Assembly: GCA_018894435.1 (NCBI GenBank)
Contig: JAHIPI010000027.1
Span: forward strand, 1,552 to 65,551
From: Candidatus Omnitrophota bacterium
Lineage (GTDB): Bacteria; Omnitrophota; Gorgyraeia; JAHIPI01
Direction: 5' to 3'
DNA length: 64,000 nucleotides
In this document: piece after piece, positions 1 through 21,334 of the stretch
Position numbering within the stretch: the stretch's first letter is position 1
How the letters are laid out: every line of letters starts with the position of its first letter
Notes under the pieces: generated by a model
What the model was told of the DNA's origin: nothing
What the model saw: only the letters and a program-made list of their open reading frames with translations
Databases searched by the model: none
Translations under genes and position numbers: made by a program

Positions 1-3000
1 AGTCTCAGTTCCTGAAAGCTGCAATGAATTGTAAGTAGTGGTAGTAACATTGATGTTGCCTGCTGAGTTAGTAGCAGAGTATTTAACTGTAGAGGTGCCG
101 GGAGTTAAGGTGCCGCTAACAGTTAAGACTGTAGCAGTAGCGCCTGCATTGGCTAAGGTAAGCGTATAGCTTCCTGCTCCAAGATCTAAGATATCAGCCG
201 AACCAACTGTTCCATCGATCGTCAGCGTATCCACAGTCATTGAAGAAGCAAGAGTGAGTTTATTGTTAGTAGCCGGAGCTACAGTATCAGTCTTATTGAT
301 TGAGACTACGCCGATATTTTGTGGAGTGGCAGTTGAATCAGTATATGTAGCTGCGGTTGTGCCATCGAATGTCCAGGTGCCTGTGCCTTTGGTAACAGCT
401 CCTGCGGAAGCTATTGAGACATTGCCTGCGGTATTGACATTAGGATTATTGGTCAAAAGATTTAGGGTGCCATCAGTAATCGTCAGTGTCCCATTTACAT
501 CCAAAGCGCCTGATATAATCGCCTGGTCATAAGTCGCCTGGGTATTATTGAGCGTCAGGTTATAGAATGCCTGTCCGGCAGTAGTGATTGTCTGATGAGC
601 TGAAGCATTGCCGGTGAGAGTAACTGTGCTTGTGCCTGCAGTAAATGTTCCTGAGTTAGTCCAGTTGCCGCTTGCTGTAATAGGGGCGTATGAGCTTGTC
701 GCATCGAGGGTGCCATTTATTGTAATGTCTACGGCAGTAAGGCCATACTCTGTGCTAGTGGGTTTCACATCCAATGTGGCGTTAGAATTGATTGTTAAAT
801 TGCCTGTCATGGCATAGCTGCCTATAAGGTCGCCGGTCAGATTATATGTTGTAGCGCCTGTTGGAGTAAGTGTCAGGTTATTGTAAGCGACTCTTGCGAT
901 ATTAGTGGCTGTAGCAGTGCCGGTATAGATTACTGTAGAGCCTGTGCCTTTATTGAAGGTGCCTGTAGCTACAAGAGGAGTACCTGTGCCTGTGATGGTT
1001 AATATATATGAGGTTGTCCCAAGATTAAATGTTGTGCCGGTACCGATACTTAAAGAGGTTAGCTTTAAGTTACCTATCATCGTGGTAGTGCCTGTACCAC
1101 TAGTTACTACTACGCCTATGTCATTAGTAGTGGCGTTAGCATCTGATATATTCTGGGTAGCGCCGTCCAATGTGAGAGCCTGGCCGCCTGTGGCCTTGGT
1201 GAATGTGGAGCCATCCGCTATCGTGAAGTTACCTGATACATTAAGAGTCGAGGTGGCCTGAGTGAATGTGCCTGAATTAAGCGCGAAGGCTCCGTTAACG
1301 TCTACTGAGCCGGCCGCACCGCTTGTAAACGTCCCTCCCCCTATCGTTAACCCACCGTTAAAGGTCTGAAGGGCTGTTGAGGCCGAGTATGTGCCGCCGT
1401 TAATAGATGTAAGGCCTGTTACCGTGACGGTCATGGTGTTGGCATCGAAGATGCCAACTGAATTGATGAAGGCGCCTGTTACTGAAAGAGCATCCGCTAA
1501 CTGCAGCGTGCCGGCTCCGGAGTGAGTGAGGTTGTAGAAGGATGAATTCGTTGTACCGGAAGTTAACGTCTGGGTTCCGCTAGCTTTATTAAAAATAACC
1601 GTAGAATCATCGGCGATGAACTGTGACGGCGCTGTGCCTGTGCCGTAGTTAAGCCAGTTACCACCGACGGTGATGGTTGATGTGCGGCCAGCGCCAACGT
1701 TACGCGTGGCATCGAGTTTTCTTAAACCTGTCTCATCATTAAAACCAATTGTTAAATTTCCGCCAACCGTAAGGTTATAACCATCGGTTTTCCAGGTAAT
1801 TACGTTTCCAGCCGAATAAGCGGTTATAGATAAACTGTTTGTACCATTAAGCGTAACATTGCCTGTTTGAGTTATTGTTACGTTACCCCCTGTGACGATC
1901 CCACAATTATAGCCATTAGTTAGTGTGGGTATTGTAGCACTTGCAACAAAAGATAACATAGTAAGAGTAAGACTCGAGTTGACATCGAAACTGAGCGGAT
2001 TAGCCCCTTTGAGATATATCCATTTGCTACCTGTCAACGTACCGGAACCAATCGTCAATATCGACCCAATGGCAATATGGCTACCCAAAGTCGTCGTATT
2101 ACCGCTCTGTCCGGCGGTCAGGTTATTGAAGCCGTTAGCCGAATAACCTGATAAATTATTATACGTCAGCGTATTCACCCCATTCAGCACTAAGGTAGCA
2201 CTGTTGTATTGAGTAGATGCCACTGTCCCATCCGCTGTGAATGTGCCGTTGCCGTTAATGGTAATAGTTGATGAATTGGCGTTGAAGCGTGAGGTAATAG
2301 ATGACTGAACGAAGTTGCCGGCGAGCGTAATACCGTAAGAGTTGGCTAATGTAGTATCAAGTATCGCTCCTGCATCAATAGTCAGATTACCGGTTAAGGC
2401 ATTGCCAACTGTTAAGTTACCGGTCAAGTCATAAGTCTCAGTTCCCGAAAGTTGCAATGAATTGTAAGTAGTAGTGGTAACATTGATGTTGCCAGCTGAG
2501 TTAGTAGCAGAGTACTTGACTGTAGAGGTTCCGGGAGTTAAGGTACCACTTACTGTTAAGACTGTAGCAGTGGCGCCTGCATTGGCTAAGGTAAGTGTAT
2601 AGCCGCCAGCTCCTAAGTCCAGGGTATCAGCTGAACCGGCAGTGCCATCAATAGTTAAAGTATCTACTGTCATGGATGAGGCAAGAGTGAGCTTATTGTT
2701 TGTGGCTGGGGCTACTGTATCTGTCTTATTGATGGAGACTATTCCGATATTCTGAGGAGTAGCTGTTGAGTCTGTGTATGTAGCAACGGTGATGCCGTCA
2801 AAGGTAACTGCTCCGCCCTTGGTAAAGGTGGTGCCTAGATCCAGCTGGAAGTTGCCGGCATAGTTCTGGGTTTGACTGTTGGCATTAAATGTTCCTGACT
2901 GTAGCCTGAAGTTGCCATTCACATCCAAGGCATCTATTAATACCGCACTGCCAGCGGATTTATTGATGGTCAAGCCATAGAATGACTGACTATTCGATGT

Positions 3001-6000
3001 GATATTCTGGGTTCCTGTGCCGTTTAGAATAACCGTGGAGCTGCCGGGGGTGACGGTGGCGCGGGTAAAATCAACATTTCCGCCGATACTGACATTGCTC
3101 GTTGTGCCAAAATCGAAATAGCCGTAGGTATAACCGCTGCTGCCGTCCACATTAACATTGCCGGTAATGCTGTGCGTGCCGGTCTTAAACAGAATTTTTC
3201 CTCGATAGCCTTCCGGATAAGGAGCGTAACTTATTCCTAAATCCAGATTACCATTAACGGTTAGATTAAAGCCGTTTGTATCTAAAACTTGCGCTTCTGC
3301 TTCTGTATCAGCTAAGAAATCGCCGGCAATCCATAAAGTTCCGGTTGTCCAGTTGCCTGTCATTTGAATAGTCTTTGTATTAGCATACGCTATCTTGACC
3401 TGAACAGAAGTGCTAAATGCTTTTTGTGTTAAAGGGGTAGCGCTGGGTACAATGTCTATTCCACCGGTGGTTATACTCGAACCAGCGCCCATATCTAAAA
3501 AGTCATTCGCATTCGGATAAATAGCAATAGTACTCGCACCGGTCAAGACTGCGCTAGTTCCGAGAACAAGCTTCTTAGTGAAAACTCCGCCGGTTCTCGT
3601 GGAAGTAACACTGTTGCCAATTTGCAATACAGCAATAATATTGCCAGAATTTGGATTGGAGATATTCCCGTTTGCTCCCTGGATCCACGTACCTGTTGAT
3701 GTAAGGATACCCGAAGTATTGGCAATGCTGATATTGCCATTTACAGTTACGGTTTGGCCGCCATCGATCAGTGTGCCATCGGTAACAGTAATACCTGTGC
3801 ACGTTAACGCATCCACCAGCGTCCATCCGCCCGCGGCATTGCTTGAGTCAAATACGACAGTATTAAAAGTAGAGCCGCCGGTCGTAATAGTTTTTCCTAC
3901 TGCGCTAGCGGTAAAGGTAACTGTTTCGCTGGCGCCTTTGGTATATACACCTCTTGTCCCAGAATCCCAATTGCCGCCGACATTAATCGGCGTATTATTG
4001 ACTGAATTATTCAGGGTAATGGTTACGGCGCCGACCGTTGTATGGGTTATGGTAAGATTACCACCCACAGTAAGAGTGCCAATGCCTAAAACACCTGTAG
4101 CGGAGCCGGCATTGCTATTCGTTATGGTTAAATTGCCGCCGTAGGTTGTGGGGGTTATGGGCGCGGTTGTAGCGCCTTGTCCAATCAGATATTCAAATAA
4201 GCTCACAGAAATCGTGCCATTGTTGACAATGTTAGATGAGGCATTGCTAACATCTTTAGAAAACCTGCCCGCGCCGCTTAAGGTGCTTGCATTATTGATG
4301 GTTAAGGTGCCAGTCTGACCTACGTATAATCTCTTACCTGTCCCGATTTCCAGTTCTCCTGTAATATTCAGGGCATAAGAGGGATAGGCGGAAGTGCCTG
4401 TATTCCAGCTCACTTTGTTAATTCCGGAATTTATGGTTAATTTGTAGAATTTAACGTCCCAGTAACTCCCGCTTGTAGGAGTAGTAATGGTTTTGTTTCC
4501 CCCTGTGGCTGTCATAATTACTTCGCTTGTGCCATAAGTAAACGTCCCTGCCGAAGAATCCCAGTTGCCGCCGACATTAATTAGCGTGGCGCCGCTGCAG
4601 GTAAGCGTAACACCGGAGTTAATCGTGAGATTGCCTGAAACGCCGATAGTATAGACACCCACAGTATAGGTAGCGGCAGTGGTGGTCTTAGCTAATGTCA
4701 AAGCGCCGGCTGAAGTAACTGCCTGAAGCGTTGATGATACGCCTTCGCTGGTTAAGGTAATGTCACCGCTGGTAACTGTAGAAATCGTCCCTGAAGACTG
4801 GATGAGCGCTCCTGCGCCGGTATTAATCTGCAGCGCTCCGCTAGTGACTGTGAGGTTCCCGGCAATGGTGAGCGTATTGCCATTACTATTAATATATGCG
4901 CCGCCGGAGCCTGCAACTACGCCAGTGAGCGCTGTAGAAGGAGCAATATATAAATTCGCTACGTCTGTGCCTAATCCGCCAGTCGCGCCGCCGGCTGTCA
5001 ATTTAAGATTTGCTGCCTTGATAATATTGGAAGCGCCGCCGGAATGGGTGATGTTTCCTGCTGCTGCCGCTAGCGTTAGGTCGCCAAGAGTTTTATAAAG
5101 TAGGTTGTCGCCGGTATTTTCCAAAACTCCGCCATAAGTAGCTGTGTTGGAAACAATGGCTAATTCTTCAGTCGTGCCGGATTCAACCGCGGTCTTAATA
5201 TCCAAATTGCCCGAGGCTTTAGAAATGTGCGAAGCGCCAAGGGGCGTATTAGTTTCTACATAGACGCCTGTTGCAATTGGGATTGGCGTAGAGGCAGTGC
5301 CGACACTACCGGAGGTAGATTTTAGGACTATCGCGTCAGCGCTAAAGCTGGCTGAATTTGAAGTTATATTATTTGTTGCTGTAACATAGATAAAGTTGGC
5401 TCCGGAAAATGCGGAAATAGACCCCAGCGAAATATCATAACCCTTGATTGTTATATTGGAAGCCGTTGTGGTTGAAATTGTTCCGGAAGTATGGGTGAAA
5501 TTTCCTGAGCCATTGGCATCGTAATCAGCTTGGATAGCTATAGAGCTGCCGGTTGAGCTAACATTTGCCTGGATATCAATATCGCCATTGGAATAGAGAA
5601 AAATATTCCCTGATCTGGAGAACGCGCCTGTAACTGTTAATTCTACCGGCGCGCCGGCAGTATCGCCAGTAGCATAAATAGTAGTGGTAGCTCCTCCGGA
5701 TAAGCTGGCATTCTGGGTGGAGCCGCCGGTAGTAATAGTATTACCATTAATGATAAAGGTATTGGCGCCTTGCAGGGTTAGAGGGTTTCCCGTGCCGGCA
5801 GTTAAAGTCACTAAGCCTGCAGCGGTAAAAGTGAGGTTGCCTGAGCCATTGGCATTATAATCAGCTTGGATATAAAGGTAACTTTCGGTTGAGCCAACAT
5901 TAGCCTGGATATCAATATCACCTTTGGAAAAGAGATAAACTACCCCTGATTTGGAAATCGCGCCTGTAACTGTCAACTCTACCGGTGCGCCGGCAGTATC

Positions 6001-9000
6001 ACCAGTAGCATAAATGTTAAGGCTATTTCCTCCGGATAAGCTGGCATTCTGGGTTGAGCCAGCAGTAGTAATAGTATTGCCATTAACGCTAAAGGTATTG
6101 GCGCCTTGCAGATAATGAATGTTTGACGCGCCGGCAGTTAAAGTCACTGTAGCTGCAGCAGTAAAAGTGAGATTGCCTGAGCCATTGGCATCATAATCAG
6201 CTTGGATATAAAGGTAATTCCCTGTTGAGCCAACATCAGCCTGTATATCAATATCACCTCTGGACCAAAGAGTAACTATGCCGCTCTTAGAGATCGCTCC
6301 TGTGACTGTCAGCTCTACTGGCGCGCCGGCAGTATCGCCAGTAGTATAGATTTGTAAGCTATTTCCTCCGGATAAGCTGGCATTCTGGGTTGAGCCAGCA
6401 GTAGTAATAGTATTGCCATTGATGCTAAAGGTATTGGCGCCTTGCAGATAATGAGTGCTTGACGCGCCGGCGGTTAAAGTCACTGTAGCTGCGGCAGTAA
6501 AAGTGAGGTTGCCTGAGCCATTGGCATCTATATCAGCTTGGACATAAAGTGAGCTTCCCGTTGAGCTAACATTTGCTTGTATATCAATATCTCCTTTGGA
6601 ATAGAGATAAACTGTCCCTGATTTGGAGACCGCTCCTGTAACTGTCAGCTCTACTGGCGCGCCAACAGTATCGCCAGTGGCATAAATAGTAAGGCTATTT
6701 CCTCCGGATAAGCTGGCATTCTGGGTGGAGCCGCCGGTAGTAATAGTATTGCCATTAACGCTAAAGGTATTGGCGCCTTGCAGATAATGAAGGCTTGATG
6801 CGCCGGCAGTTAAAGTCACTGTAGCTGCGGCAGTAAAAGTGAGGTTGCCTGAGCCATTGGCATCATAATCAGCTTGGATATACAGGGTATCTCCCGTTGA
6901 GCCAACATCAGCCTGTATATCTATATCGCCATAGGCTCGAAGATTAACCGCGCCAGTCTTAGAGATCGCTCCTGTAACTGTTAATTCTACTGGCGCGCCG
7001 GCGGTATCGCCAGTAGCAGTAATGGTAAGGCCGCCACTTCCTCCGGATAAGCTGGCATTCTGGGTGGAGCCAGCAGTAGTAATAGTATTGCCATTAACGC
7101 TAAAGGTATTCGCGCCTTGCAGGACATGAGCGCTCGATGCTTCGGCAGTTAAAGTCACTATGCCGACAGCAGTAAAAGTGAGATTGCCTGAGCCGTTGGC
7201 ATCATAGTCAGCGTAGATACCTACAGAGCTGCCGGTTGCGCTAACATCAGCCTGTATATCAATATCACCTTTGGAAAAGAGATAAACTGCCCCCGATTTG
7301 GAAATTGTGCCTGTAACTGTCAACTCTATTGGTGCGCCGGCAGTATCGCCAGTAGCATAAATGTTAAGGCTATTTCCTCCGGATAAGCTGGCATTCTGGG
7401 TGGAGCCACCGGTAGTAATAGTATTACCATTAACGCTAAAGGTATTGGCGCCCCACAGTTTATGAACGCTTGATGCGCCGGCAGTTAAAGTCACTAAACC
7501 TGCAGCAGTAAAAGTGAGGTTGCCTGAGCCATTGAGATCGTAATCAGCTTGGATATAAAGGTAATTCCCTGTTGAGCCAACATCAGCCTTTATATCAATA
7601 TTTCCATTTGCCCATAATCTTATAAGGCCGGCGCAGGAAATCGTATCATTGACTGTAATGTCCCCGACTATAGCCGAAATAATTGATTTGTAAACACTTA
7701 ATGAGCCTGCAGAAGTAATCGCATCTAACGTGGCATTTGCCGCGTAGATGATGATGTTTGCTGTGCCGGTAGTGGTAATTTGTGTGGCAGAGCCCTGGAT
7801 AAACGAACCATTGCCATCACGGTCAGAATCCGCGTTAAAAGTAATCGTGCCGGAGGCGGAAACCGAGGCATTGACATATATATCATTAGTAGCGGTGAAG
7901 GTCAGCGCGCCGGCATAGGCAGTAATCGGAGAATCAATCCAGATATTTACCGGGTCAAAATCAAGGTGGCTGGCAGAATAGGTGCCGCCAATGTCAAGGC
8001 TGTCAGCCTTAAAGATAATCGTGCCGTAGTCAGGGTTGGCAGCCATAATTCCGCGGGCGTAAATTGTCCCATTTAATGCTTTTAATACTATATCGCCGGT
8101 GGGCGTAGATAAAGTGCCGTTTAAGAATAAATTTTGGGTGGTTGAGATGAGGGTGAGGTTGTTGCTGGAAATAGTTACACCCCTAGCGACATAGATAGAC
8201 CCATCTTGCGCTTCGAGGATAAGATTTGTGCTCTTTAAGTATTGAATTGCGAAATCGTCGCCGGGAGGACCCCTGACGGTTACGCCTTCGCCCATGATAG
8301 AAGATAAAGCTATTACTATATCTTCATTGGTTCTCACCACCTTGAGCGTGCCGGCTGCGGTTATTACGGGTTCCTCGCTATGACCGATATTGTTGCCTAT
8401 AAGGGTGAGTGTTGAGGCAGGTATTATGGCCTGTCCTGAATCTGTCACTCCACCATTTTGGGCCTCCAGGGTAAGAGACTTAAGCGAACAATAGGTCACT
8501 GCTCCGAAACCTTCAACCGGTCCGACAATCGTAACCTGGTCTCCTTCTAACTCTATAACTGCTACTATGTCAATGTCACTTATATTCCTATATATATGGG
8601 TGACATTCGCGTTCACTATGAAAGGCTCTTCAATACTGCCTATTTGAATTCCTATCAGCTTAACCATATCACCGGGAACTGCTGTATCCGATATGTTAGT
8701 AACTTTCCCGTTTGGCGCTTCCAGCGTAATACTGCCGGCAGTCGCATACCTTAATATATCACCGTGCTCTGTGGTCATGGTGGTTATGCCGGCATCTGAG
8801 GTTACTGTGTTAATCTCTATGTCGCCTGCTGTATGGATGTAATGGGGCAGGCCCGCTATCTGAATCGGTGCAACACGGCTTCCTATTAATATATGGCCCT
8901 CGGCCGCCTCCATATCGTACAGGGTAAGAAGAGGAGCATCGACCATCAGGTCGCCTTCAAGAACGGCCAGCTTTGTCCCTTCGATCTGCCTCACCTCGCC

Positions 9001-10305
9001 GCCGAACGCGGTAATATCGAGGTCGCCCGATGAAGAGACGTTAGCCACTGTCACGCTTCCGGTTCCGGAATAGGCAGTGGTGCCTGACCTTATGGTTATA
9101 TCCCCACCTCCCTGAGTAGATATGGCAGCATCGGCGAGTTGGGTGAAATCGCCTCCGTTTAGGTTATCATCATCTGCTATGAATACAAGGTCTGCCCCGT
9201 TTAATCCATATACATTGCCTGTAATATTGATATTGGCAGGCGTCGCTACGGTGAGGGACGCGGTTGCTTCCATTGTGCCTGCTAATGTAGTATCTAACAA
9301 TGAGCTATATGAGATGTTCGCGCCCGTAACTTCGGCGCTTGCCAGTTGTACTATTTCGCCTTTCGTCGCCTCTATAGTGATATCACCTGAGGCGTACATG
9401 GTACCGCTATTTTCTATATCGCCCTCAGGCGCCAGGAGCGCAATGGTTCCGTCCGCATTCTCCACGATCTTAGCGGCCAGTATCATGCCTTCGTTGTTAA
9501 CGGCATTAGCAAAGGCGTCTCTGGCAGCTGAGGCAGCAATAATGACTTTGCCTGAATCGGCCTGGATTGTCCCTGTATTTATTATGGCAGCTTCCTCATT
9601 GGTGGGGTTAGAGGTAACAGGTTCATCTATAGCCACCTGTATGAGGCGGTTATTTTCGAAACTGATGGTAACCTTGTTCCCGCTTGCCAGTGCCACCGTT
9701 CCCTGATCGGCCTGCAGCATCCCTTCATTTTTGATAGTCTGGGCTAAAAGGGCAATGAAGCCGCCATCGTTCACAGCTATTACTGCCTGGTTTACAATCT
9801 GGCCATCTTTGTTCAGTTTCTGGAAAACATATCTGCCGTTTCTGAAATCTTCTGTATCAATGTTCATTGTTGATGCAACAAGCGATCCAACATTGATGTT
9901 TGCGCTGGGGTCAAATACTATGCCGTTCGGGTTGACTATAAAGATATTGCCATTGGCATAAAGATAGCCAGCAATTACTGATTGCTGGCCGCCTATGACA
10001 TTGTTAAGGACGTTTGAGTTTGCTGATGTCTGATAATAATAGACGCTCTCGTTTGCTGTGATATTTAAAGACTGCCAATTTAAAACTGCATTATCTGAGG
10101 GCCTTACGGTTACACTATTGGGGATCGAATAATCGATTTCGGCTGTGCCTTCAACTACCTGGCATCCTTCAGGAAGTGCGTGTACTGTGTTTACGCTAAA
10201 TAATAAAAAAAGAGCAATCAAACCCGCAGCCCACATTATGCCGCTTGTGGCGCGTGTCTTTCTTGCCCTTATAATCTCGTTTTTACTGTGGCTTAACGTT
10301 CTCAT
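1..10305 (-). CDS. Giant TpsA / filamentous-haemagglutinin-like secreted repeat exoprotein; N-terminal signal peptide plus TPS (haemagglutination activity) domain; 3' end lies beyond the window start (at least 3435 codons in window)
   Basis: Reverse-complement translation from ATG at 10305 gives MRTLSHSKNEIIRARKTRATSGIMWAAGLIALFLLFSVNTVHA... then ...GNIFIVNPNGIVFDPSANINVGSLVAST (NPNGI hallmark of the TPS domain). No complete minus-strand ORF is listed for 1..10305, consistent with one open frame with no in-frame stop before the window edge. The plus-strand V/P-rich ORFs are antisense shadows. Confidence 0.8.
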   Translation of the reverse strand, partial: MRTLSHSKNEIIRARKTRATSGIMWAAGLIALFLLFSVNTVHALPEGCQVVEGTAEIDYSIPNSVTVRPSDNAVLNWQSLNITANESVYYYQTSANSNVLNNVIGGQQSVIAGYLYANGNIFIVNPNGIVFDPSANINVGSLVASTMNIDTEDFRNGRYVFQKLNKDGQIVNQAVIAVNDGGFIALLAQTIKNEGMLQADQGTVALASGNKVTISFENNRLIQVAIDEPVTSNPTNEEAAIINTGTIQADSGKVIIAASAARDAFANAVNNEGMILAAKIVENADGTIALLAPEGDIENSGTMYASGDITIEATKGEIVQLASAEVTGANISYSSLLDTTLAGTMEATASLTVATPANINITGNVYGLNGADLVFIADDDNLNGGDFTQLADAAISTQGGGDITIRSGTTAYSGTGSVTVANVSSSGDLDITAFGGEVRQIEGTKLAVLEGDLMVDAPLLTLYDMEAAEGHILIGSRVAPIQIAGLPHYIHTAGDIEINTVTSDAGITTMTTEHGDILRYATAGSITLEAPNGKVTNISDTAVPGDMVKLIGIQIGSIEEPFIVNANVTHIYRNISDIDIVAVIELEGDQVTIVGPVEGFGAVTYCSLKSLTLEAQNGGVTDSGQAIIPASTLTLIGNNIGHSEEPVITAAGTLKVVRTNEDIVIALSSIMGEGVTVRGPPGDDFAIQYLKSTNLILEAQDGSIYVARGVTISSNNLTLISTTQNLFLNGTLSTPTGDIVLKALNGTIYARGIMAANPDYGTIIFKADSLDIGGTYSASHLDFDPVNIWIDSPITAYAGALTFTATNDIYVNASVSASGTITFNADSDRDGNGSFIQGSATQITTTGTANIIIYAANATLDAITSAGSLSVYKSIISAIVGDITVNDTISCAGLIRLWANGNIDIKADVGSTGNYLYIQADYDLNGSGNLTFTAAGLVTLTAGASSVHKLWGANTFSVNGNTITTGGSTQNASLSGGNSLNIYATGDTAGAPIELTVTGTISKSGAVYLFSKGDIDIQADVSATGSSVGIYADYDANGSGNLTFTAVGIVTLTAEASSAHVLQGANTFSVNGNTITTAGSTQNASLSGGSGGLTITATGDTAGAPVELTVTGAISKTGAVNLRAYGDIDIQADVGSTGDTLYIQADYDANGSGNLTFTAAATVTLTAGASSLHYLQGANTFSVNGNTITTGGSTQNASLSGGNSLTIYATGDTVGAPVELTVTGAVSKSGTVYLYSKGDIDIQANVSSTGSSLYVQADIDANGSGNLTFTAAATVTLTAGASSTHYLQGANTFSINGNTITTAGSTQNASLSGGNSLQIYTTGDTAGAPVELTVTGAISKSGIVTLWSRGDIDIQADVGSTGNYLYIQADYDANGSGNLTFTAAATVTLTAGASNIHYLQGANTFSVNGNTITTAGSTQNASLSGGNSLNIYATGDTAGAPVELTVTGAISKSGVVYLFSKGDIDIQANVGSTESYLYIQADYNANGSGNLTFTAAGLVTLTAGTGNPLTLQGANTFIINGNTITTGGSTQNASLSGGATTTIYATGDTAGAPVELTVTGAFSRSGNIFLYSNGDIDIQANVSSTGSSIAIQADYDANGSGNFTHTSGTISTTTASNITIKGYDISLGSISAFSGANFIYVTATNNITSNSASFSADAIVLKSTSGSVGTASTPIPIATGVYVETNTPLGASHISKASGNLDIKTAVESGTTEELAIVSNTATYGGVLENTGDNLLYKTLGDLTLAAAAGNITHSGGASNIIKAANLKLTAGGATGGLGTDVANLYIAPSTALTGVVAGSGGAYINSNGNTLTIAGNLTVTSGALQINTGAGALIQSSGTISTVTSGDITLTSEGVSSTLQAVTSAGALTLAKTTTAATYTVGVYTIGVSGNLTINSGVTLTCSGATLINVGGNWDSSAGTFTYGTSEVIMTATGGNKTITTPTSGSYWDVKFYKLTINSGINKVSWNTGTSAYPSYALNITGELEIGTGKRLYVGQTGTLTINNASTLSGAGRFSKDVSNASSNIVNNGTISVSLFEYLIGQGATTAPITPTTYGGNLTITNSNAGSATGVLGIGTLTVGGNLTITHTTVGAVTITLNNSVNNTPINVGGNWDSGTRGVYTKGASETVTFTASAVGKTITTGGSTFNTVVFDSSNAAGGWTLVDALTCTGITVTDGTLIDGGQTVTVNGNISIANTSGILTSTGTWIQGANGNISNPNSGNIIAVLQIGNSVTSTRTGGVFTKKLVLGTSAVLTGASTIAIYPNANDFLDMGAGSSITTGGIDIVPSATPLTQKAFSTSVQVKIAYANTKTIQMTGNWTTGTLWIAGDFLADTEAEAQVLDTNGFNLTVNGNLDLGISYAPYPEGYRGKILFKTGTHSITGNVNVDGSSGYTYGYFDFGTTSNVSIGGNVDFTRATVTPGSSTVILNGTGTQNITSNSQSFYGLTINKSAGSAVLIDALDVNGNFRLQSGTFNANSQTQNYAGNFQLDLGTTFTKGGAVTFDGITVATYTDSTATPQNIGIVSINKTDTVAPATNNKLTLASSMTVDTLTIDGTAGSADTLDLGAGGYTLTLANAGATATVLTVSGTLTPGTSTVKYSATNSAGNINVTTTTYNSLQLSGTETYDLTGNLTVGNALTGNLTIDAGAILDTTLANSYGITLAGNFVQSSITSRFNANSSTITINGNGTFTADGTVASTQYNSATLVLNGVNTLTYNNLSGYSANGFNNLTAGQSGNTTTLGSHIAIGSILTIGSGTLTGSKWIYLKGANPLSFDVNSSLTLTMLSFVASATIPTLTNGYNCGIVTGGNVTITQTGNVTLNGTNSLSITAYSAGNVITWKTDGYNLTVGGNLTIGFNDETGLRKLDATRNVGAGRTSTITVGGNWLNYGTGTAPSQFIADDSTVIFNKASGTQTLTSGTTNSSFYNLTHSGAGTLQLADALSVTGAFINSVGIFDANTMTVTVTGLTSINGGTYSASTALQTFNGGLTIGGGTFTSGAAGSVDVNGAFALNSGTFTQATSTLNVSGNFTIADGSTFTKATGGQALTLDGATQNISDANATTNDIGVVVTSGTGTTTMIGNLKLTSLSIGTGTTFNLGTTSYILTITGTGTPLVATGTFNKGTGSTVIYTGTATATNIARVAYNNLTLTPTGATTYNLTGDLIGSYAMTGNLTINSNATLDVKPTSTEYGLTAVDITINGTLDATSSYAPITASGNWTNSGTFTAGTSTVTLTGNASAHQTITTAGQAFYNLTLNNTQATYDQAIISGALDVNGTLTITDGTLNLLTNNPNVNTAGNVSIASAGAVTKGTGTWTFDGTTAATYTDSTATPQNIGVVSINKTDTVAPATNNKLTLASSMTVDTLTIDGTVGSADILDLGAGSYTLTLANAGATATVLTVSGTLTPGTSTVKYSATNSAGNINVTTTTYNSLQLSGTET
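2440..2820 (-). repeat. Long-range intragenic duplication: 2440..2820 is about 88% identical to 1..380 (2.44-kb period), with weaker similarity continuing beyond
   Basis: Direct comparison of agtctcagttcctgaaagctgcaatgaattgtaagtag... at position 1 with agtctcagttcccgaaagttgcaatgaattgtaagtag... at position 2440. Confidence 0.75.
5505..7524 (-). repeat. Tandem array of 336-bp (112-aa) near-identical repeats inside the tpsA-like gene, about 6 full copies plus degenerate copies on both sides (roughly 5170..7860)
   Basis: The motif cctgagccattggcat recurs at 5505, 5841, 6177, 6513, 6849, 7188 and 7524; the period is 336 bp (one step of 339). A repeat translates on the minus strand as DANGSGNLTFTAAATVTLTAGASSTHYLQGANTFSINGNTITTAGSTQNASLSGGNSLQIYTTGDTAGAPVELTVTG... 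Confidence 0.8.
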
Positions 10306-10471
10306 TGCAAATCCTATTTTCGGCAACTGACAGCCATGACCAGAATGGCTTTAGGCTCTTAGTTTTGCGTCGCCAGCTTTTGCTGGTTTTGCCTTTTCGC
10401 TATAGAATTTAAAGAGAACCCGAATTACTTTGAGTGGTTTGGTTCGTCTTTACCCTTTTAGCCCTACTAAG

Positions 10472-10500
10472 AGTATAACACATAGTACCTTAAAAATCAA
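10472..10500 (-). promoter_or_regulatory. Candidate sigma70 promoter for the tpsA-like gene (TTGATT-17-TATACT on the minus strand)
   Basis: Reverse complement of 10471..10500 is ttgatt tttaaggtactatgtgt tatact; about 165 nt upstream of the ATG at 10305. Confidence 0.35.
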
Positions 10501-10603
10501 GTTTCGAGTCGTGGTATTATACGTAACTCATTGTGCTATAATATGTTATCTTACTAAACCCCCATTAAAAAGTCTTCCCTTGCCGAAAAATCGTGACAGG
10601 CGC

Positions 10604-10942
10604 TTATTTTTTCAGCCACTTTGTAATCTTAGGGTTCCGGCTCAGTTTGTCTATCTTCTTGTAAACTGTTACCGCCTCCTCATATCTTTTCTCAGCCAAA
10701 AGCGACTCTGCCTCATCATAAAGCGGCTTTATCTCAGAAAGTATACCTTGAAGTTTGTCTTGCGCTTGCTCCTCCCAAATCTTTTGCTCGATCTCCTTTA
10801 TGCGTACCTTCGCTTTCCTCGCCAGCTCATCTATGTTGTATCTGTAGAATTCGGCACGGGAGGTACTAGTAAATAGCAGAACAACTAATATGGTCATTGC
10901 GAGCGCCGCGAAGCGGCGCGTGGCAATCTCAAAGTTTTTCAT
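10604..10942 (-). CDS. Small secreted/periplasmic helical protein with a TPR-like segment
   Basis: 112 aa. N-terminal signal peptide (MKNFEIATRRFAALAMTILVVLLFTSTSRA). The motif LYDEAESLLAEKRYEEAVTVYKKI resembles the C-terminal repeats of the adjacent TpsB. Confidence 0.5.
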   Translation of the reverse strand: MKNFEIATRRFAALAMTILVVLLFTSTSRAEFYRYNIDELARKAKVRIKEIEQKIWEEQAQDKLQGILSEIKPLYDEAESLLAEKRYEEAVTVYKKIDKLSRNPKITKWLKK

Positions 10943-11219
10943 ATAGATCCGTAAATTTAGGATTCAAGCTGTTTATCAAATCTATCTTCTTCTTTCTAGA
11001 ACCAGCTTTAATCTGTTTTTCTCTTGCGATAGCCGTTTCAATATCGTCAAATACTTCATAATATACCAGCTTGTCAACATTGTATTTCTTGGTAAATCCC
11101 TCTACCATCTTATGCTTGTGTTCATACGCTCTCTTACGTAAATCGCTTGTAACGCCTGTGTAAATAACCGCATCCCCTTTGTTAGTCATTAAATAGACGT
11201 AGCCTTGCTTTTCATGCAT
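10929..11219 (-). CDS. GIY-YIG nuclease family protein (UPF0213-like, 96 aa)
   Basis: GYVYLMTNKGDAVIYTGVTSDLRKRAYEH matches the GIY-(x10)-YTG...R...EH core of GIY-YIG; the size is typical of the family. Confidence 0.8.
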   Translation of the reverse strand: MHEKQGYVYLMTNKGDAVIYTGVTSDLRKRAYEHKHKMVEGFTKKYNVDKLVYYEVFDDIETAIAREKQIKAGSRKKKIDLINSLNPKFTDLYEKL

Positions 11220-11231
11220 ATTTTATTTATT

Positions 11232-11270
11232 GAGATTGCTTCGTCCCGCCAAGGCGGGACTCGCAATGAC
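11232..11270. repeat. Family-C palindromic element (GTCATTGCG-NNN-CCCGCC-NNGG-CGGG-NN-GAAGCAATCTC), minus orientation
   Basis: Its reverse complement, gtcattgcgagtcccgccttggcgggacgaagcaatctc, is nearly identical to the plus-strand 39-mer at 33049..33088. Confidence 0.55.
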
Positions 11271-11280
11271 ACAGCCCCCC

Positions 11281-13482
11281 TTATCTCGCGAGCTCCAATG
11301 CCCTTTGATACGCTTCCCCGGCCTTTTCGAGGTCGCCTTCTTTATCGTACTTTTCTGCCTCTTCAAAGGCCTTGACCGCCGCCTCTTCTTCCGAATTTCC
11401 CGTGTGGCTCCAAGCCAGTTCAAGTACCTTCACATACGCCTCTTTTGCCTTTTTCCAATCTCCTTCTTTCTGGTATTTCACTGCCTGCTCAAACGTCATC
11501 TGCGCTTCTTCCTCTTTCTGGATAGTATCTTTTATCTCCACCTGAGTGCCGGTAATGACCTGGTCACGCAGCTCAACGACCTTGGCATACAGTTCCTTTG
11601 CCTCTTCGTAGCGGCCTTCCTGCTCCAGCGCCTGAGCCGTCTCAAACGAGTCTTTCATCTCCACTGACGGTGTTTCGTGCTTTACCTTCGTCAGTCTGTC
11701 TTCTATCCTCGTATACATCATCTCTTGTAAAAGCTGTTCATACTCGGCGAGTGACGGCTCCTCAAAGCTGAAATACATGTGCGCCTTGGGGCTTCTGCCG
11801 TAAGACGAGGCATCGCCGACAGGCCAGGCAACGTCATACCGAGCGGAGAGGCAATTCATAATATTTGCCCTTCCGCCAAAACCTACGCCTATGAAATTAT
11901 GGTTATGCCTTGGCGTCGGGCTGGGCTCTCGGTAGTGCGCAAAGCCCCAGTCGGCAAATATCGTGCCCTGCAGGACGCGCCTCGGATGTATACCCTCAAT
12001 GTGAAAACTGTCCGGAATAAAATAAAACGGATAACGTAATTCTATGCTCGCATTGTTGCCGTAATCGCCCAATGCGTCGCCTTCGCCGTAGCCCCTCACC
12101 GTATACATGCCGCCAATTCTATACTGCTCGGAACTTACAAGCGGATTATTTGACGCCTGTCCCGCCGCGCTCAAAAGAAGGTACGTTGAAAGAGGCATGG
12201 CGTTCATGCGAGAAATGGAGTAGGTATATTTAACAAATTTCCCGCCGCCTTTTTCTCTGGAGGAGTGTATGTCGTTCTCGTCCATAGAGTCCAGGAAATT
12301 AGGGAATGAAACGTTCAGCTCGTTTCTGAGCTGCGTCCTCCCGACGGCATCGCTCTCGTCAAGCGTAAAGGCGCCTTTCATAATCCGCAGTTTGTCGCGC
12401 GAATCCAAAACACCGCCTATGGTGGTCTTTGCCTCTTTTATGTCCATGCCACCGTCAATGGTGCCACCCAATGTGCCGGATTTGTAAGTAAGGTTAAAAA
12501 CGGGGTGCGACATAAAGGGCGATACCGTTCCCGACCAGCTTTTTATACCGTAATCCTGAAAATCACCGCCTATTCTCGATTTAAAGTAAGACGCGGAAAT
12601 CCCCAGCTTTGTACCGGATTCGTTAACGGGTATCGTGTAGTCTGCTATCCAGCCATAAAAATTGAATGTATCGGATCTCATGAAACGGCCGAAGAAGCGG
12701 TCGTCCCAGCCGAGGAGCGAGTTGTCTTCCAGTCCAAGGGTAAGACGCCAATTACCTGTCGTATTATTGCCGGTGTTATCAAAACTCAAAAAAGGATGCA
12801 CCGGCGGCCTGTCCTTTACTTTTATCATTACGTCGCTCGTGTCCGGAAGCGAGCCGCGGTAAAGTACGGCCCGCACAATTCTATCGGGGCTCTGGTTTAG
12901 ATACAAGAGGTCGTCTCTTAAGTCATTGTAATCTAAGATGTCGCCCCTATTGTTATTAATGCGTCTCTTTATTACGGACTCGTTTGAATTCTGAACGCCC
13001 TCTATATTGATATTGCCGTATTTGCCTTCAAGGACTTTTATGGTAACGGTATTGTCTGCGATCGTCTGCGGCGGGACATATGCCTGCGAGGTTATATAAC
13101 CTTCCGATGTGTAAAGAGCGCTTATCTTATTGGCCGCCTCTATAAGGTCGTTCAGTGACAATTCCCTGTTTTCGTAAGGTTGCGTGATCTCTTTAATACG
13201 CTTCTCGGGAAATACGGTATTGCCTTCTACGTTTATGTGCTCAATTAGGAATTTCTTTGTGGATTCGGCCTCGGGGACTGCTATTTTCTTTTCTTCGTCT
13301 TCTATGTTTACTTTTGGCTGGGGTTTGAAACCTTGGAAAGGTTTTTGCTTCAAGATAGCGCTGCCCTCTTTGCCCGCTGTAGGTATGGGTGGTTGAGCGC
13401 GCAACAAAGAAGCCGTGAAGATACAGACGGCTAAAAGTGCAAAAAATATGATTTTTCGTAACTCTTTTTCTTTATTAGGCAT
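11281..13482 (-). CDS. TpsB / ShlB-FhaC family outer-membrane transporter (POTRA domains plus beta-barrel) with a non-canonical C-terminal extension of about 155 aa containing three TPR-like repeats; the listed ORF extends to 13542 but the likely start is the Met at 13482
   Basis: POTRA-like FLIEHINVEGNTVFPEKRIKEITQ...VTIKVLEGKYGNINIEG. Barrel region ending ...KAHMYFSF. Then FETAQALEQEGRYEEAKELYAKVVEL / FEQAVKYQKEGDWKKAKEAYVKVLEL / FEEAEKYDKEGDLEKAGEAYQRALEL. Signal peptide MPNKEKELRKIIFFALLAVCIFTASLLRAQ follows the second Met. Confidence 0.8.
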   Translation of the reverse strand: MPNKEKELRKIIFFALLAVCIFTASLLRAQPPIPTAGKEGSAILKQKPFQGFKPQPKVNIEDEEKKIAVPEAESTKKFLIEHINVEGNTVFPEKRIKEITQPYENRELSLNDLIEAANKISALYTSEGYITSQAYVPPQTIADNTVTIKVLEGKYGNINIEGVQNSNESVIKRRINNNRGDILDYNDLRDDLLYLNQSPDRIVRAVLYRGSLPDTSDVMIKVKDRPPVHPFLSFDNTGNNTTGNWRLTLGLEDNSLLGWDDRFFGRFMRSDTFNFYGWIADYTIPVNESGTKLGISASYFKSRIGGDFQDYGIKSWSGTVSPFMSHPVFNLTYKSGTLGGTIDGGMDIKEAKTTIGGVLDSRDKLRIMKGAFTLDESDAVGRTQLRNELNVSFPNFLDSMDENDIHSSREKGGGKFVKYTYSISRMNAMPLSTYLLLSAAGQASNNPLVSSEQYRIGGMYTVRGYGEGDALGDYGNNASIELRYPFYFIPDSFHIEGIHPRRVLQGTIFADWGFAHYREPSPTPRHNHNFIGVGFGGRANIMNCLSARYDVAWPVGDASSYGRSPKAHMYFSFEEPSLAEYEQLLQEMMYTRIEDRLTKVKHETPSVEMKDSFETAQALEQEGRYEEAKELYAKVVELRDQVITGTQVEIKDTIQKEEEAQMTFEQAVKYQKEGDWKKAKEAYVKVLELAWSHTGNSEEEAAVKAFEEAEKYDKEGDLEKAGEAYQRALELAR

Positions 13483-13513
13483 ATGTGTATTTGCGCTAAT
13501 TATATTACTAACA

Positions 13514-13542
13514 ATAATACCTGATTTTTTGGGTTTAGTCAA
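13514..13542 (-). promoter_or_regulatory. Candidate sigma70 promoter for tpsB (TTGACT-17-TATTAT on the minus strand)
   Basis: Reverse complement of 13514..13542 is ttgact aaacccaaaaaatcagg tattat. It lies inside the first 20 codons of the longest ORF, which supports the downstream Met at 13482 as the true start. Confidence 0.4.
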
Positions 13543-19924: not shown

Positions 19925-19930
19925 ATTTTT

Positions 19931-19962
19931 AGCTATCAGCTATCAGCTCTCAGCTATCAGCT
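19931..19962. repeat. Family-B heptamer-repeat arm (AGCTATC)n, left inverted repeat of the four-helix-bundle cassette
   Basis: agctatcagctatcagctctcagctatcagct. Encodes the last residues (ADS) and the stop of the four-helix-bundle gene. Confidence 0.7.
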
Positions 19963-20315
19963 TTTAATTTCTTTTTTAAACCAGATATCATTGCCGAAAT
20001 CTCATCGGATTTTTCAATAAGACAGCTTATGTCTCTTTCATTAAGATAATTTAACCGCTTAGCTATTTCTAGCCCACACATTACTTCATAAGAAGAACGT
20101 AATGAAATGCTCAAAAATCTATTAAACTCATTATCTGAACCAGCTCCGCTACCTTCGGCTATATTTAATGCTATTGACGTAGCTGCCCTTCTTAATTGAC
20201 TCGTTAATCCATATATCTCATTCGTCGGAAATTTATTCGTAATCTTATAAATATCTTCTATAAAACTCATTGCTTTATTCCAAATTGTCAGTTTTCTGAA
20301 TTTTTGTTCTTTCAT
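19950..20315 (-). CDS. Four-helix-bundle protein (23S rRNA intervening-sequence protein family, TIGR02436-like)
   Basis: 121 aa. ...LTSQLRRAATSIALNIAEGSG...EFNRFLSISLRSSYEVMCGLEIAKRLNYL is typical of the family. Confidence 0.7.
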   Translation of the reverse strand: MKEQKFRKLTIWNKAMSFIEDIYKITNKFPTNEIYGLTSQLRRAATSIALNIAEGSGAGSDNEFNRFLSISLRSSYEVMCGLEIAKRLNYLNERDISCLIEKSDEISAMISGLKKKLKADS

Positions 20316-20331
20316 ATCTAATTCCTATTAT

Positions 20332-20364
20332 AGCTGATGACTGACGACTGAAAGCTGACAGCTC
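20332..20364. repeat. Family-B heptamer-repeat arm, right inverted repeat of the four-helix-bundle cassette
   Basis: agctgatgactgacgactgaaagctgacagctc; its reverse complement is agctgtcagctttcagtcgtcagtcatcagct. Confidence 0.7.
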
Positions 20365-21334
20365 ACTTACCAAGCATTTCTTTCGCAACCTCAAACACTT
20401 CCTCCGCAGTGATCTCTTTCATGCATTCGTGCTCAAACTCGCACTGCGCCTTTTCGCAAGGAACGCAGTGTATCTTCTTTCTTATAACGCGGTCGTCTTT
20501 GCCTCTCGGGCCGTAGAGCCGCGGGTCCGTCGGGCCGAATATCGCCAATACTTTTGTTCCGGCGGCAACTCCTAAATGCATGGGAGCGCTGTCATTCGTT
20601 ATAAGCAGGTCGCTCTTTTTTAAAAGTGCGGCAAGCTGGCAAAGGCTCGTTTCGCCGGTAAGGTCAGTTACCTCTTTATTTGCGGCGGCTATTATATCCT
20701 TTACCGCCCGCCTGTCCGCCTTGTCGCCTGCCAATATCACATCGGCGTCGATTTCGTCAATAAGACGCCCTACAAGCTCCGCATATCCTTTTTTCGTCCA
20801 TCTTTTTATCTCGCTTTTCGCGCCCGGCGCTATGGCAACAACGGGTTTTTTTGAGTCGCTCTTTTTTATTATCTTATCTATAAAATCAATGTCTTCCGTG
20901 GGTATATGTATAAAAAAAGGCGCGTCCTTTACTTCGAGCCCTATTGAACTCAGTTTTGCGAGGTGCTGCTCCTTTTTATGCCTGACGGCCCTTGGGACAT
21001 TTTGAATGGGGCTCGTCCTGTATTTTGCGCCCAGAAGAAACGGGAAAAGCGAATTTCTCATATCTACTATAAGGTCATAACGGACCTTTCTCAATTTCTG
21101 TATGAGGCGGCGTTTCTCTTTAAGGGATGTGTGCTTATTGTAGATTATCAGCTTAAATACAGCCGGATGTTTTTTGAATAAGTCCTCACCGTTCGGGCCG
21201 ACCATCACGTCGAGTCTAGCGCTTGGAAAATGGCCGCAAAGGACCGACATGACGGGTGTCGTCAGCACTATATCGCCTATATTGCTCAGTGTGATAAATA
21301 GCATGCGTTTTACTTTGGATTTGTCTATTTTCAT
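20363..21334 (-). CDS. Glycosyltransferase family 9 (heptosyltransferase-like)
   Basis: MLFITLSNIGDIVLTTPVMSVLCGHFPSARLDVMV... Confidence 0.8.
   Translation of the reverse strand: MKIDKSKVKRMLFITLSNIGDIVLTTPVMSVLCGHFPSARLDVMVGPNGEDLFKKHPAVFKLIIYNKHTSLKEKRRLIQKLRKVRYDLIVDMRNSLFPFLLGAKYRTSPIQNVPRAVRHKKEQHLAKLSSIGLEVKDAPFFIHIPTEDIDFIDKIIKKSDSKKPVVAIAPGAKSEIKRWTKKGYAELVGRLIDEIDADVILAGDKADRRAVKDIIAAANKEVTDLTGETSLCQLAALLKKSDLLITNDSAPMHLGVAAGTKVLAIFGPTDPRLYGPRGKDDRVIRKKIHCVPCEKAQCEFEHECMKEITAEEVFEVAKEMLGK

Follow-up and report, generated by a model that had tools for sequence, protein, structure and literature searches.

A type Vb secretion locus of Omnitrophota with an inserted nuclease cassette and a c-di-GMP-I riboswitch aptamer ahead of its giant exoprotein gene

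The two-partner secretion locus and its inserted cassette

A 64-kb stretch of Candidatus Omnitrophota DNA (referred to as a whole as the window) carries on its minus strand a two-partner secretion (TPS) locus in which tpsB, encoding an outer-membrane transporter, is followed by a GIY-YIG nuclease gene, a small open reading frame (ORF) and tpsA, encoding a giant exoprotein (Table 1). The gene order comes from the ORF list and its translations, and the window was matched by exact sequence to NCBI contig JAKLQY010000009.1 of a Candidatus Omnitrophica metagenome-assembled genome (MAG). The GIY-YIG and small ORFs share a 14-nt overlap, and a 298-nt gap separates the small ORF from tpsA. An earlier reading of this DNA (the original prediction) had located tpsB, the two intervening genes for proteins of 96 and 112 aa and the giant tpsA correctly, and had overlooked the riboswitch, the separate promoter of tpsA and the C-terminal tetratricopeptide repeat (TPR) extension of TpsB. 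The locus departs from described systems in three linked respects: its TpsB has a TPR tail, a small TPR-like periplasmic protein is dedicated to it, and its cargo gene is predicted to be under riboswitch control.

Table 1. Features of the locus, with positions in the window
Feature	Position	Strand	Basis or description
Promoter-like site for tpsB	13514..13542	-	TTGACT-17-TATTAT, consensus match only
tpsB	11281..13482	-	Omp85-family, two POTRA, 16-strand barrel, ~160-aa C-terminal TPR extension
Left inverted repeat of GIY-YIG cassette	11230..11270	.	GTCATTGCGAG-hairpin-GAAGCAATCTC
GIY-YIG nuclease gene, 96 aa, cassette cargo	10929..11219	-	PF01541
Right inverted repeat of GIY-YIG cassette	10893..10932	.	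GAGATTGCC-hairpin-CTCGCAATGAC
Small ORF, 112 aa: signal peptide, long helix, one TPR-like unit	10604..10942	-	Alignment, tblastn
Promoter-like site for tpsA	10472..10500	-	TTGATT-17-TATACT, extended -10 TG
c-di-GMP-I riboswitch aptamer (RF01051)	10319..10403	-	Covariance model
P1 3' strand AUAGGAUUU (10317..10309), Shine-Dalgarno AGGA (10315..10312), tpsA start codon (10305..10303)	10303..10317	-	Sequence and folding
tpsA giant exoprotein gene	2..10305	-	Signal peptide, TPS domain, T/G/A/S/N-rich passenger

The locus is a genuine type Vb (two-partner) secretion system by every sequence-level mark of membership. TpsB is a protein of 733 aa that matches the Pfam families POTRA_2 (E 4.7e-25) and ShlB (E 3.5e-24), and its AlphaFold2 model (57 homologues as input, mean pLDDT 89.3) comprises two POTRA-like alpha/beta units (residues ~77-225), then 16 beta-strands (228-574), and at the C-terminus a domain that is all helical and confidently modelled (578-732). 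A Foldseek comparison with the PDB placed CdiB at the top (6wim, E 1.9e-32) with FhaC, and then BamA and TamA; the POTRA domains and 16-strand barrel expected by the original prediction are thus both present. The (V/I)RG(Y/F) motif of loop 6 occurs as VRGY at residue 462, in a column that is (nearly) invariant in the alignment of TpsB relatives (A5). Ahead of tpsB, a sigma-70-like promoter site with 10/12 consensus matches lies ~30 nt upstream of the ATG at 13482. A longer ORF that starts at a TTG (753 aa, to 13542) was rejected as an artefact, as this TTG is the -35 hexamer of the promoter-like site and the 753-aa form has no exact match in the gene index, whereas the 733-aa form from ATG 13482 matches database gene calls.

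The giant cargo gene runs from its ATG to position 2 of the window, 3434 aa without a stop codon, and is called at 4208 aa on contig JAKLQY010000009.1, where it still runs off the contig end. Its product begins as the original prediction had proposed, with a signal peptide (an N-terminal hydrophobic segment, then VHA/LPEG) and a TPS domain (PF05860, residues 59-299, E 3e-32) with the NPNGI motif, and it matches the NCBIfam adhes_NPXG model TIGR01901 (E 1.2e-19). Few residues of TpsA are charged, and 56% are T, G, A, S or N. In the 3434 aa, no Pfam family beyond TPS was found even at E<=10, FHA-1/FHA-2 repeats were not found, self-BLAST gave no internal repeats at E<=1e-5, and there is no toxin or pretoxin module within the window.

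Comparisons were made with the loci of relatives (L with a number), the TpsB proteins of these relatives (P with a number) and alignments among them (A with a number); L008 and L014 count as one distinct relative, as do L003 and L004. The TpsA proteins of the window, L009 and L011 align over their first ~740 residues (65% identity), and the remainder has diverged beyond detection, a pattern typical of exposed surface fibres. One possibility is that the locus is instead a CdiB/CdiA-like contact-dependent growth inhibition (CDI) system, with a C-terminal polymorphic toxin and an immunity gene past the contig end. The position of tpsB before tpsA, as in cdiBAI, the rank of CdiB as top fold match and the hypervariability of the passenger between close relatives would all suit such a system. 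However, FhaC is nearly as good a fold match, the available part of TpsA carries no FHA-repeat, pretoxin or toxin Pfam domain, and no toxin or pretoxin family is among the Pfam families listed for the two complete TpsA proteins, those of L005 (1441 aa; TPS plus a faint PEGA) and L019 (1391 aa; TPS plus weak Peptidase_M26_N and Glug). We therefore regard CDI as quite improbable.

The 96-aa protein is a GIY-YIG nuclease, as originally predicted (PF01541, E 1.9e-16, profile positions 2-76/78), and its gene is a self-contained inserted cassette that lies outside the secretion system. On either side of the gene stands an inverted repeat of ~40 nt, the two having their outer arms in common and differing in their inner hairpins. 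Both repeats form hairpins (-11.2 kcal/mol and z -3.9 are listed for the left one), and the inner stem varies between copies yet remains self-complementary. When the junction between tpsB and the small ORF is compared among relatives within one kdsC-tpsB synteny, L008 (TpsB 75% identical) has an empty junction, in which the tpsB stop codon overlaps the ATG of the small ORF as ATGA; L003/L004 (73%) have at the same place a gene for a four-helix-bundle protein of the 23S_rRNA_IVP family with different flanking inverted repeats; L010 retains only a 3' remnant of a gene of that type; and in L009 (71%) the last ~15 nt of the GIY-YIG gene and the right repeat survive. The full insertion is common to the window and L011, which belongs to a different species-level MAG (~87% nucleotide identity). 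The same cassette also occurs elsewhere: in L020, from another Omnitrophota MAG, two tandem GIY-YIG genes with these left and right repeats occupy an oriC-proximal place near dnaA, between jag and parA. The left repeat flanks the GIY-YIG copies in both L011 and L020, and the overlap of the GIY-YIG stop codon with the start of the right repeat is exactly alike in L020 and the window. Variable presence at an orthologous junction, together with the same cassette at another site, marks the gene as a local insertion and not a component of the system. The family to which it belongs is large, as 7944 of the 8000 scored candidates reached E<=1e-15, most of them ~96 aa long, with many from Omnitrophota and many on short contigs.

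The original prediction had regarded both intervening genes as integral to a four-gene TPS or CDI system, in which the nuclease could be, for example, an effector or linked to immunity. The genes are indeed contiguous and co-oriented, the GIY-YIG and small ORFs overlap, and the arrangement recurs in a second species-level genome (L011). The nuclease, however, has no signal peptide, has inverted repeats on both sides, is missing in L008, has given way in L003 to a small gene unrelated to it, is left only as a remnant in L009, is found as an identical cassette between jag and parA in L020, and has thousands of near-identical homologues of ~96 aa, all of which makes its membership in the system very improbable. 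The lineage-specific variant of type Vb secretion with two extra genes, as originally proposed, thus holds for the small ORF, which is kept in eight relatives, and fails for the nuclease, and the headline of that proposal, a nuclease inside a TPS locus, is explained as a mobile cassette. The premise that no genes lie between or beside tpsB and tpsA in TPS loci was also too strong, since fhaB-fimBCD-fhaC, hmw1ABC, etpBAC and the Burkholderia-type cdiAIB provide counter-examples.

The cassette resembles YhbQ/UPF0213-like GIY-YIG proteins, which likewise are multi-copy and consist of a ~96-aa catalytic domain only. It also resembles repetitive extragenic palindrome (REP)-like and miniature inverted-repeat transposable element (MITE)-like repeats in its hairpin-forming inverted repeats and its patchy presence among close relatives; its mobility here is putative. 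A homing endonuclease of the I-TevI type was considered and rejected, because the protein has only 96 aa and no DNA-binding domain and its gene is intergenic in the chromosome, in neither an intron nor an intein. Membership in TIGR01453 was likewise rejected (16 bits against a cut-off of 56).

Part of the cassette has become coding sequence of its neighbour. The right repeat encodes, in frame, the small-ORF residues EIATRRFAALAMT, and in all lineages with a present or past cassette the small ORF starts within the 3' end of the cassette and reads through the right repeat (window 10892-10942; L003 12551-12640; L009 4642-4700; L010 4400-4500). The resulting N-terminus is MKNFEIATRRFAALAMT… in the window and MVFKKHSKLKAYSLQLKA… in the lineages with 23S_rRNA_IVP genes. 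The small protein thus owes its start codon and the positively charged n-region of its signal peptide to the cassette, even in lineages that have since lost the cassette gene.

Other copies of such cassettes were seen. The entire cassette is tandemly duplicated in L020 near the dnaA/parAB region, and tandem repeats of ~25 nt (…CGCAATGACGATGAAGGACGATCGCT…) follow each GIY-YIG cassette there (L020 9590-9760 and 10300-10500). The 64-kb window holds no second copy of the GIY-YIG gene or the small ORF. It does contain a 23S_rRNA_IVP gene (121 aa, 19950-20315, minus strand), which lies between two heptosyltransferase genes and has inverted repeats of the AGCTGA/TCAGCT type on both sides (19925-19965 and 20320-20365). 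This site is empty in L003, and a 70%-identical copy lies between kdsB and kdsA in L008. 23S_rRNA_IVP is a second small-gene cassette family whose presence varies between relatives.

The TpsB tail and the small secreted protein

Canonical TpsB homologues stop ~115 residues past the VRGY of loop 6 and end in F or Y, whereas the TpsB of the window, P0002-P0012 and P0014 extend 110-160 residues beyond the last strand (…AHMYFSF/EEPSL…). The tail of the window's protein matches Pfam TPR_2 (E 1.3e-9) and consensus TPR proteins in the PDB (E 1.7e-15), and the PDB targets aligned by Foldseek are ~450-540 residues long, with none spanning the tail. On this evidence it is a bona fide TPR domain of ~160 aa, which is unusual for a TpsB; a full-text literature search of limited extent found no paper describing a C-terminal TPR extension of TpsB. 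As a 16-strand barrel has both of its ends in the periplasm, the tail should adjoin the POTRA domains. In one TpsB relative, P0013 (L019 5705-7693), a charged tail rich in K, E and R replaces the TPR units, and no small ORF lies downstream. Charged tails of this kind are also found on the relatives of the small protein in L005, L017, L018 and L007.

The 112-aa protein has, on inspection, the N-terminal signal-peptide-like segment that was originally predicted, and the TPR-like segment predicted with it is a sub-threshold signal. No Pfam family matches the small protein significantly, and five of six family members have weak TPR_2 matches, all below Pfam thresholds (best E 0.0015). The family profile nevertheless matches TPR proteins in the PDB at E 3.7e-5, and the protein aligns with the first TPR unit of the TpsB tail at 42% identity over 38 aa (pairwise E 4e-5). 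The small ORF adjoins tpsB in eight distinct relatives (L008, L009, L003, L011, L005, L017, L018 and L007; tblastn), and it is still recognisable, always right after tpsB, where TpsB is only 41-47% identical. The mature protein (EFYRYNIDELARKAK…AESLLAEKRYEEAVTVYKKI…) is 52-64% identical in L003, L008, L009 and L010 and 74% identical in L011, and an alignment of the small proteins (A1) contains the invariant block EFYRYNIDELARKA. Its relatives vary in length, with 140 aa in L005, 364 aa in L017, where the tail is K/E-rich as it also is in L018, and a small-protein module at the N-terminus of a 1286-aa E/K/R-rich coiled-coil protein in L007. In the last of these loci, a Y1 (IS200-like) transposase gene lies between the coiled-coil protein gene and a c-di-GMP-I aptamer that is followed by an intrinsic terminator (L007 12090-15950 and 16033-16930). 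The family is rare, with 15 clusters at E<=1e-3 among 1.84 billion cluster representatives in an exhaustive HMMER scan.

An alternative explanation is that the small ORF is no accessory of the secretion system, its product being either a periplasmic protein without relation to TPS whose gene is linked to tpsB by chance, or a duplicate of the TpsB TPR tail that is in decay. The lack of a Pfam family and the sub-threshold TPR signal would agree with this, the likeness to the tail could be a remnant of duplication, and L019 has tpsB and tpsA without the small ORF. On the other hand, the gene is kept directly 3' of tpsB in relatives whose TpsB is 41-75% identical, its start codon usually overlaps the tpsB stop codon, the N-terminal block of the mature protein is invariant, and the frame and signal-peptide-like N-terminus always survive the insertions and deletions of cassettes. 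Preservation of the frame through these events argues for selection, and we consider the alternative unlikely. The small protein is a conserved, lineage-specific partner of this clade of TpsB proteins. The only relative without the small ORF, that with P0013, is also without the TPR units, and we infer that the small protein and the TpsB tail may work together in the periplasm.

The tpsA leader and its c-di-GMP-I riboswitch

The leader of tpsA contains a cyclic di-GMP (c-di-GMP)-I riboswitch aptamer, which matches RF01051 over model positions 1-87/87 (68.1 bits, gathering score 35, E 3.3e-11). No other Rfam family exceeds its gathering score anywhere in the window. Only 14 nt separate the end of the aptamer from the AUG of tpsA. 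A G at the position equivalent to G20 separates c-di-GMP aptamers from cGAMP variants, which have an A there. In the model alignment, the segments AAAAGGCAAA, CGCAAA and UGCCGAA are all conserved and the equivalents of G20, A47 and C92 are intact, the Vc2 numbering of the ligand-contacting positions being taken from the model consensus and PMC11705072. A promoter-like site lies ~70 nt upstream of the aptamer, which gives a 5' untranslated region of ~165 nt. Its -10 hexamer TATACT and the preceding TG are invariant in L008, L009 and L011, and its -35 hexamer matches in L008 and L009 (A3, A4). The conserved promoter ahead of the aptamer makes tpsA a regulated unit of its own.

Aptamers also lie upstream of tpsA in L008/L014 (67.8 bits), in L009 (62.3 bits) and in the more distant L019 (62.3 bits; TpsB 44% and TPS domain 48% identical). 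In L007 an aptamer (52.9 bits) follows the pair of tpsB and small-protein genes and precedes a gene for a secreted protein that is cut by the contig end. In L009 (5164-5284) the distal loop of P1b is enlarged by an inserted GC-rich hairpin of ~36 nt, and the aptamer still scores 62 bits. In L011 (5640-5720, against window 10466-10250), the homology ends just past the tpsA promoter, and unrelated sequence stands in place of the riboswitch and the signal-peptide codons; L011 is a natural riboswitch-less allele whose TPS domain is 75% identical to that of the window. Three genes for GGDEF-domain proteins lie directly upstream of tpsB, the small ORF and tpsA in L005 (1-9724), which has no riboswitch, and these neighbours hint at a protein-level link to c-di-GMP.

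In what direction would the riboswitch act? A CG at 10399-10398 and another at 10322-10321 flank the binding core and match the P1 pairs of RF03167 and the pairs G14-C93/C13-G94 (P1a) of Vc2. Beyond a small internal loop P1 continues, with AAAUUCUAU (10410..10402) pairing with AUAGGAUUU (10317..10309), and according to sequence and folding the Shine-Dalgarno AGGA lies within this 3' strand, 6 nt before the AUG; its distance from the CG/CG pairs conserved at the top of P1 is 4-7 nt. The stem is invariant in L008 and L009 except for one A-U to G-U change. In Vc2, the formation of P1 in the ligand-bound state represses translation (PMC11705072). Since the Shine-Dalgarno is part of P1 and the ligand drives formation of a P1 that is repressive in Vc2, an OFF switch is predicted ahead of tpsA, and we judge this direction to be likely. 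The platform in L007 is an intrinsic terminator whose 5' strand GCCAGG is complementary to the 3' strand CCUGGC of the aptamer's P1b, and this antiterminator design also predicts OFF. L019 likewise has a terminator-based platform, with a direction that is not confidently assignable.

Several considerations weigh against the OFF prediction. P1 is near-invariant in the three distinct orthologous leaders, so that covariation is minimal (the one A-U to G-U change). In the window sequence the Shine-Dalgarno is already paired when folding is unconstrained (unpaired probability 0.02-0.06), and thermodynamics alone thus gives no sign of ligand dependence. A candidate anti-P1 segment, UAGGGCU (10466..10460), may sit partly upstream of the transcription start, and only in L008 can it compete in energy by pairing with the 5' strand of P1, for which reason we keep it as a mere possibility. 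Moreover, c-di-GMP usually turns adhesins on, as with Vc1 upstream of gbpA (PMC4744006), which makes OFF counter-intuitive.

The last of these points leads to the alternative that the riboswitch is an ON switch, by which c-di-GMP would activate tpsA as an adhesin of the sessile or attached state. The c-di-GMP riboswitches of adhesin genes are typically activating, Vc1 being a positive regulator of gbpA. A Shine-Dalgarno that is sequestered without ligand might be freed if the ligand remodels the leader, and an extension of P1 that covers the AUG has a rival in a 5' hairpin (GGACGAACC/GGUUCUCC) that is conserved and shows one compensatory change. However, the Shine-Dalgarno lies in the 3' strand of P1 itself, which the ligand stabilises in this class, no alternative anti-Shine-Dalgarno element was found outside P1, and the transcriptional platform of L007 also reads OFF. 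An ON switch is therefore unlikely in our view, and repression by c-di-GMP is the direction assumed below. For the aptamers themselves we relied on the Rfam covariance scores, as RNAalifold on a MAFFT alignment of the four aptamers gave a poor consensus that recovered the P1a stem alone.

A proposed mechanism and its relation to known systems

We consider it fairly probable that the locus as a whole is a two-unit TPS locus, with a TPR-tailed TpsB and its small partner in one unit, into which the cassette was inserted, and a riboswitch-gated tpsA that is switched off by c-di-GMP as the other. The promoter upstream of 13482 would drive the first unit, tpsB plus the small ORF. TpsB would reside in the outer membrane as a 16-strand Omp85 barrel with two POTRA domains in the periplasm and the TPR tail on the same side, and the small protein, exported by Sec, may dock on or extend the TPR array to form a periplasmic platform for the very long unfolded TpsA. 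In the ancestral state the small ORF would have been translationally coupled to tpsB through the overlapping ATGA, and in this genome a selfish GIY-YIG cassette has inserted exactly at the junction of the two genes. The second unit would be tpsA, transcribed from its own promoter (10500..10472) with a leader that contains the aptamer, in which binding of c-di-GMP would lock P1, mask the ribosome-binding site and repress TpsA translation in the manner of Vc2. When made, TpsA would be exported by Sec, recognised through its TPS domain and threaded through TpsB to become a long, threonine-rich, beta-helical surface fibre, which might serve attachment to particles, hosts or prey.

Some observations speak against parts of this picture. 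The C-terminus of tpsA lies beyond the contig end, which leaves room for a role in toxin delivery. The riboswitch is not obligatory for the system, as L005, L011, L017 and L018 have no aptamer. The co-occurrence of TPR units and small ORF rests on L019 as one counter-example.

The closest known systems are FhaC/FhaB of Bordetella and CdiB/CdiA, with which the locus has in common an Omp85 TpsB with two POTRA domains, 16 strands and the VRGY of loop 6, a TpsA with a signal peptide, a TPS domain with NPNGI and a long (here predicted) beta-helical passenger, and the adjacency of the genes. It differs from them in the ~160 aa of TPR after the last strand, where canonical TpsB proteins end in a terminal aromatic residue, in the gene for a small periplasmic TPR-like protein between tpsB and tpsA, in the promoter and riboswitch that belong to tpsA, and in a passenger without recognisable FHA repeats. 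CdrA/CdrB of Pseudomonas aeruginosa is a TPS adhesin system regulated by c-di-GMP, which induces its transcription via FleQ. Both systems thus tie a large TPS-secreted surface protein to the level of c-di-GMP, but in the window the link would be made by an RNA aptamer in the tpsA leader that is predicted to be repressive, and the gene order and accessory parts differ.

TPR domains accompany barrels in other outer-membrane machines, such as BamA with BamD and the exopolysaccharide exporters PgaA, BcsC and AlgK/AlgE. These similarly combine a periplasmic TPR with an outer-membrane beta-barrel for a long unfolded or polymeric substrate. Their TPR is N-terminal to the barrel or a separate lipoprotein, whereas here it is C-terminal on an Omp85 TpsB and paired with a soluble protein of 80 aa, and the likeness is one of the generic TPR fold.

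The riboswitch belongs to the same RF01051 class as Vc2 (tfoY) and Vc1 (gbpA) of Vibrio cholerae and has the equivalents of G20 and C92. The formation of P1 is linked to masking of translation initiation in Vc2 (PMC11705072), as is predicted here, and the product regulated by Vc1 is a secreted attachment factor (PMC4744006), a role that TpsA may have. The differences are that the regulated gene belongs to another phylum and encodes a type Vb exoprotein of giant size, and that the Shine-Dalgarno is placed directly in P1 and not in a distant element, with terminator-based platforms in the relatives L007 and L019. A full-text search of limited extent found no paper that links a c-di-GMP riboswitch to two-partner secretion, to the regulation of filamentous haemagglutinin or to large exoproteins.

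Omnitrophota have been reported to be ultra-small and host-dependent and to encode many giant proteins (PMC10066038; bioRxiv 10.1101/2023.11.21.568195), and TPS and riboswitches go unmentioned in two preprints on giant genes. It is possible, although we put this forward tentatively and hold it to be less likely than not to apply in full, that a narrow clade centred on Omnitrophota has a three-component type Vb machine with a TPR platform for exoproteins of >4000 aa and an OFF riboswitch that permits the fibre only at low c-di-GMP. If so, the usual link between c-di-GMP and adhesins would be reversed, and the fibre might belong to the free or attack phase of ultra-small, possibly host-dependent bacteria. 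If the riboswitch is functional, the locus would be a compact case of second-messenger control over a giant surface protein in a phylum without cultured members. The TPR tail and small partner suggest how an Omp85 transporter may adapt to extremely long substrates and bear on how the giant proteins of Omnitrophota are made and exported. For annotation, the locus advises caution in that multi-copy small cassettes within operons (GIY-YIG, 23S_rRNA_IVP) can mimic components of a system, and in that the ends of a cassette can become coding sequence, as with the putative signal-peptide n-region here.

No tRNAs were found in the 64-kb window, and a regular-expression scan of its ORFs for GGDEF, EAL, HD-GYP and PilZ motifs gave two matches, both to the EAL pattern. 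The neighbours upstream of tpsB are kdsC, kdsD, kdsA, kdsB, an rfaE-like gene, corA and heptosyltransferase genes, and the setting is an ordinary chromosomal lipopolysaccharide-core region of a diderm bacterium.

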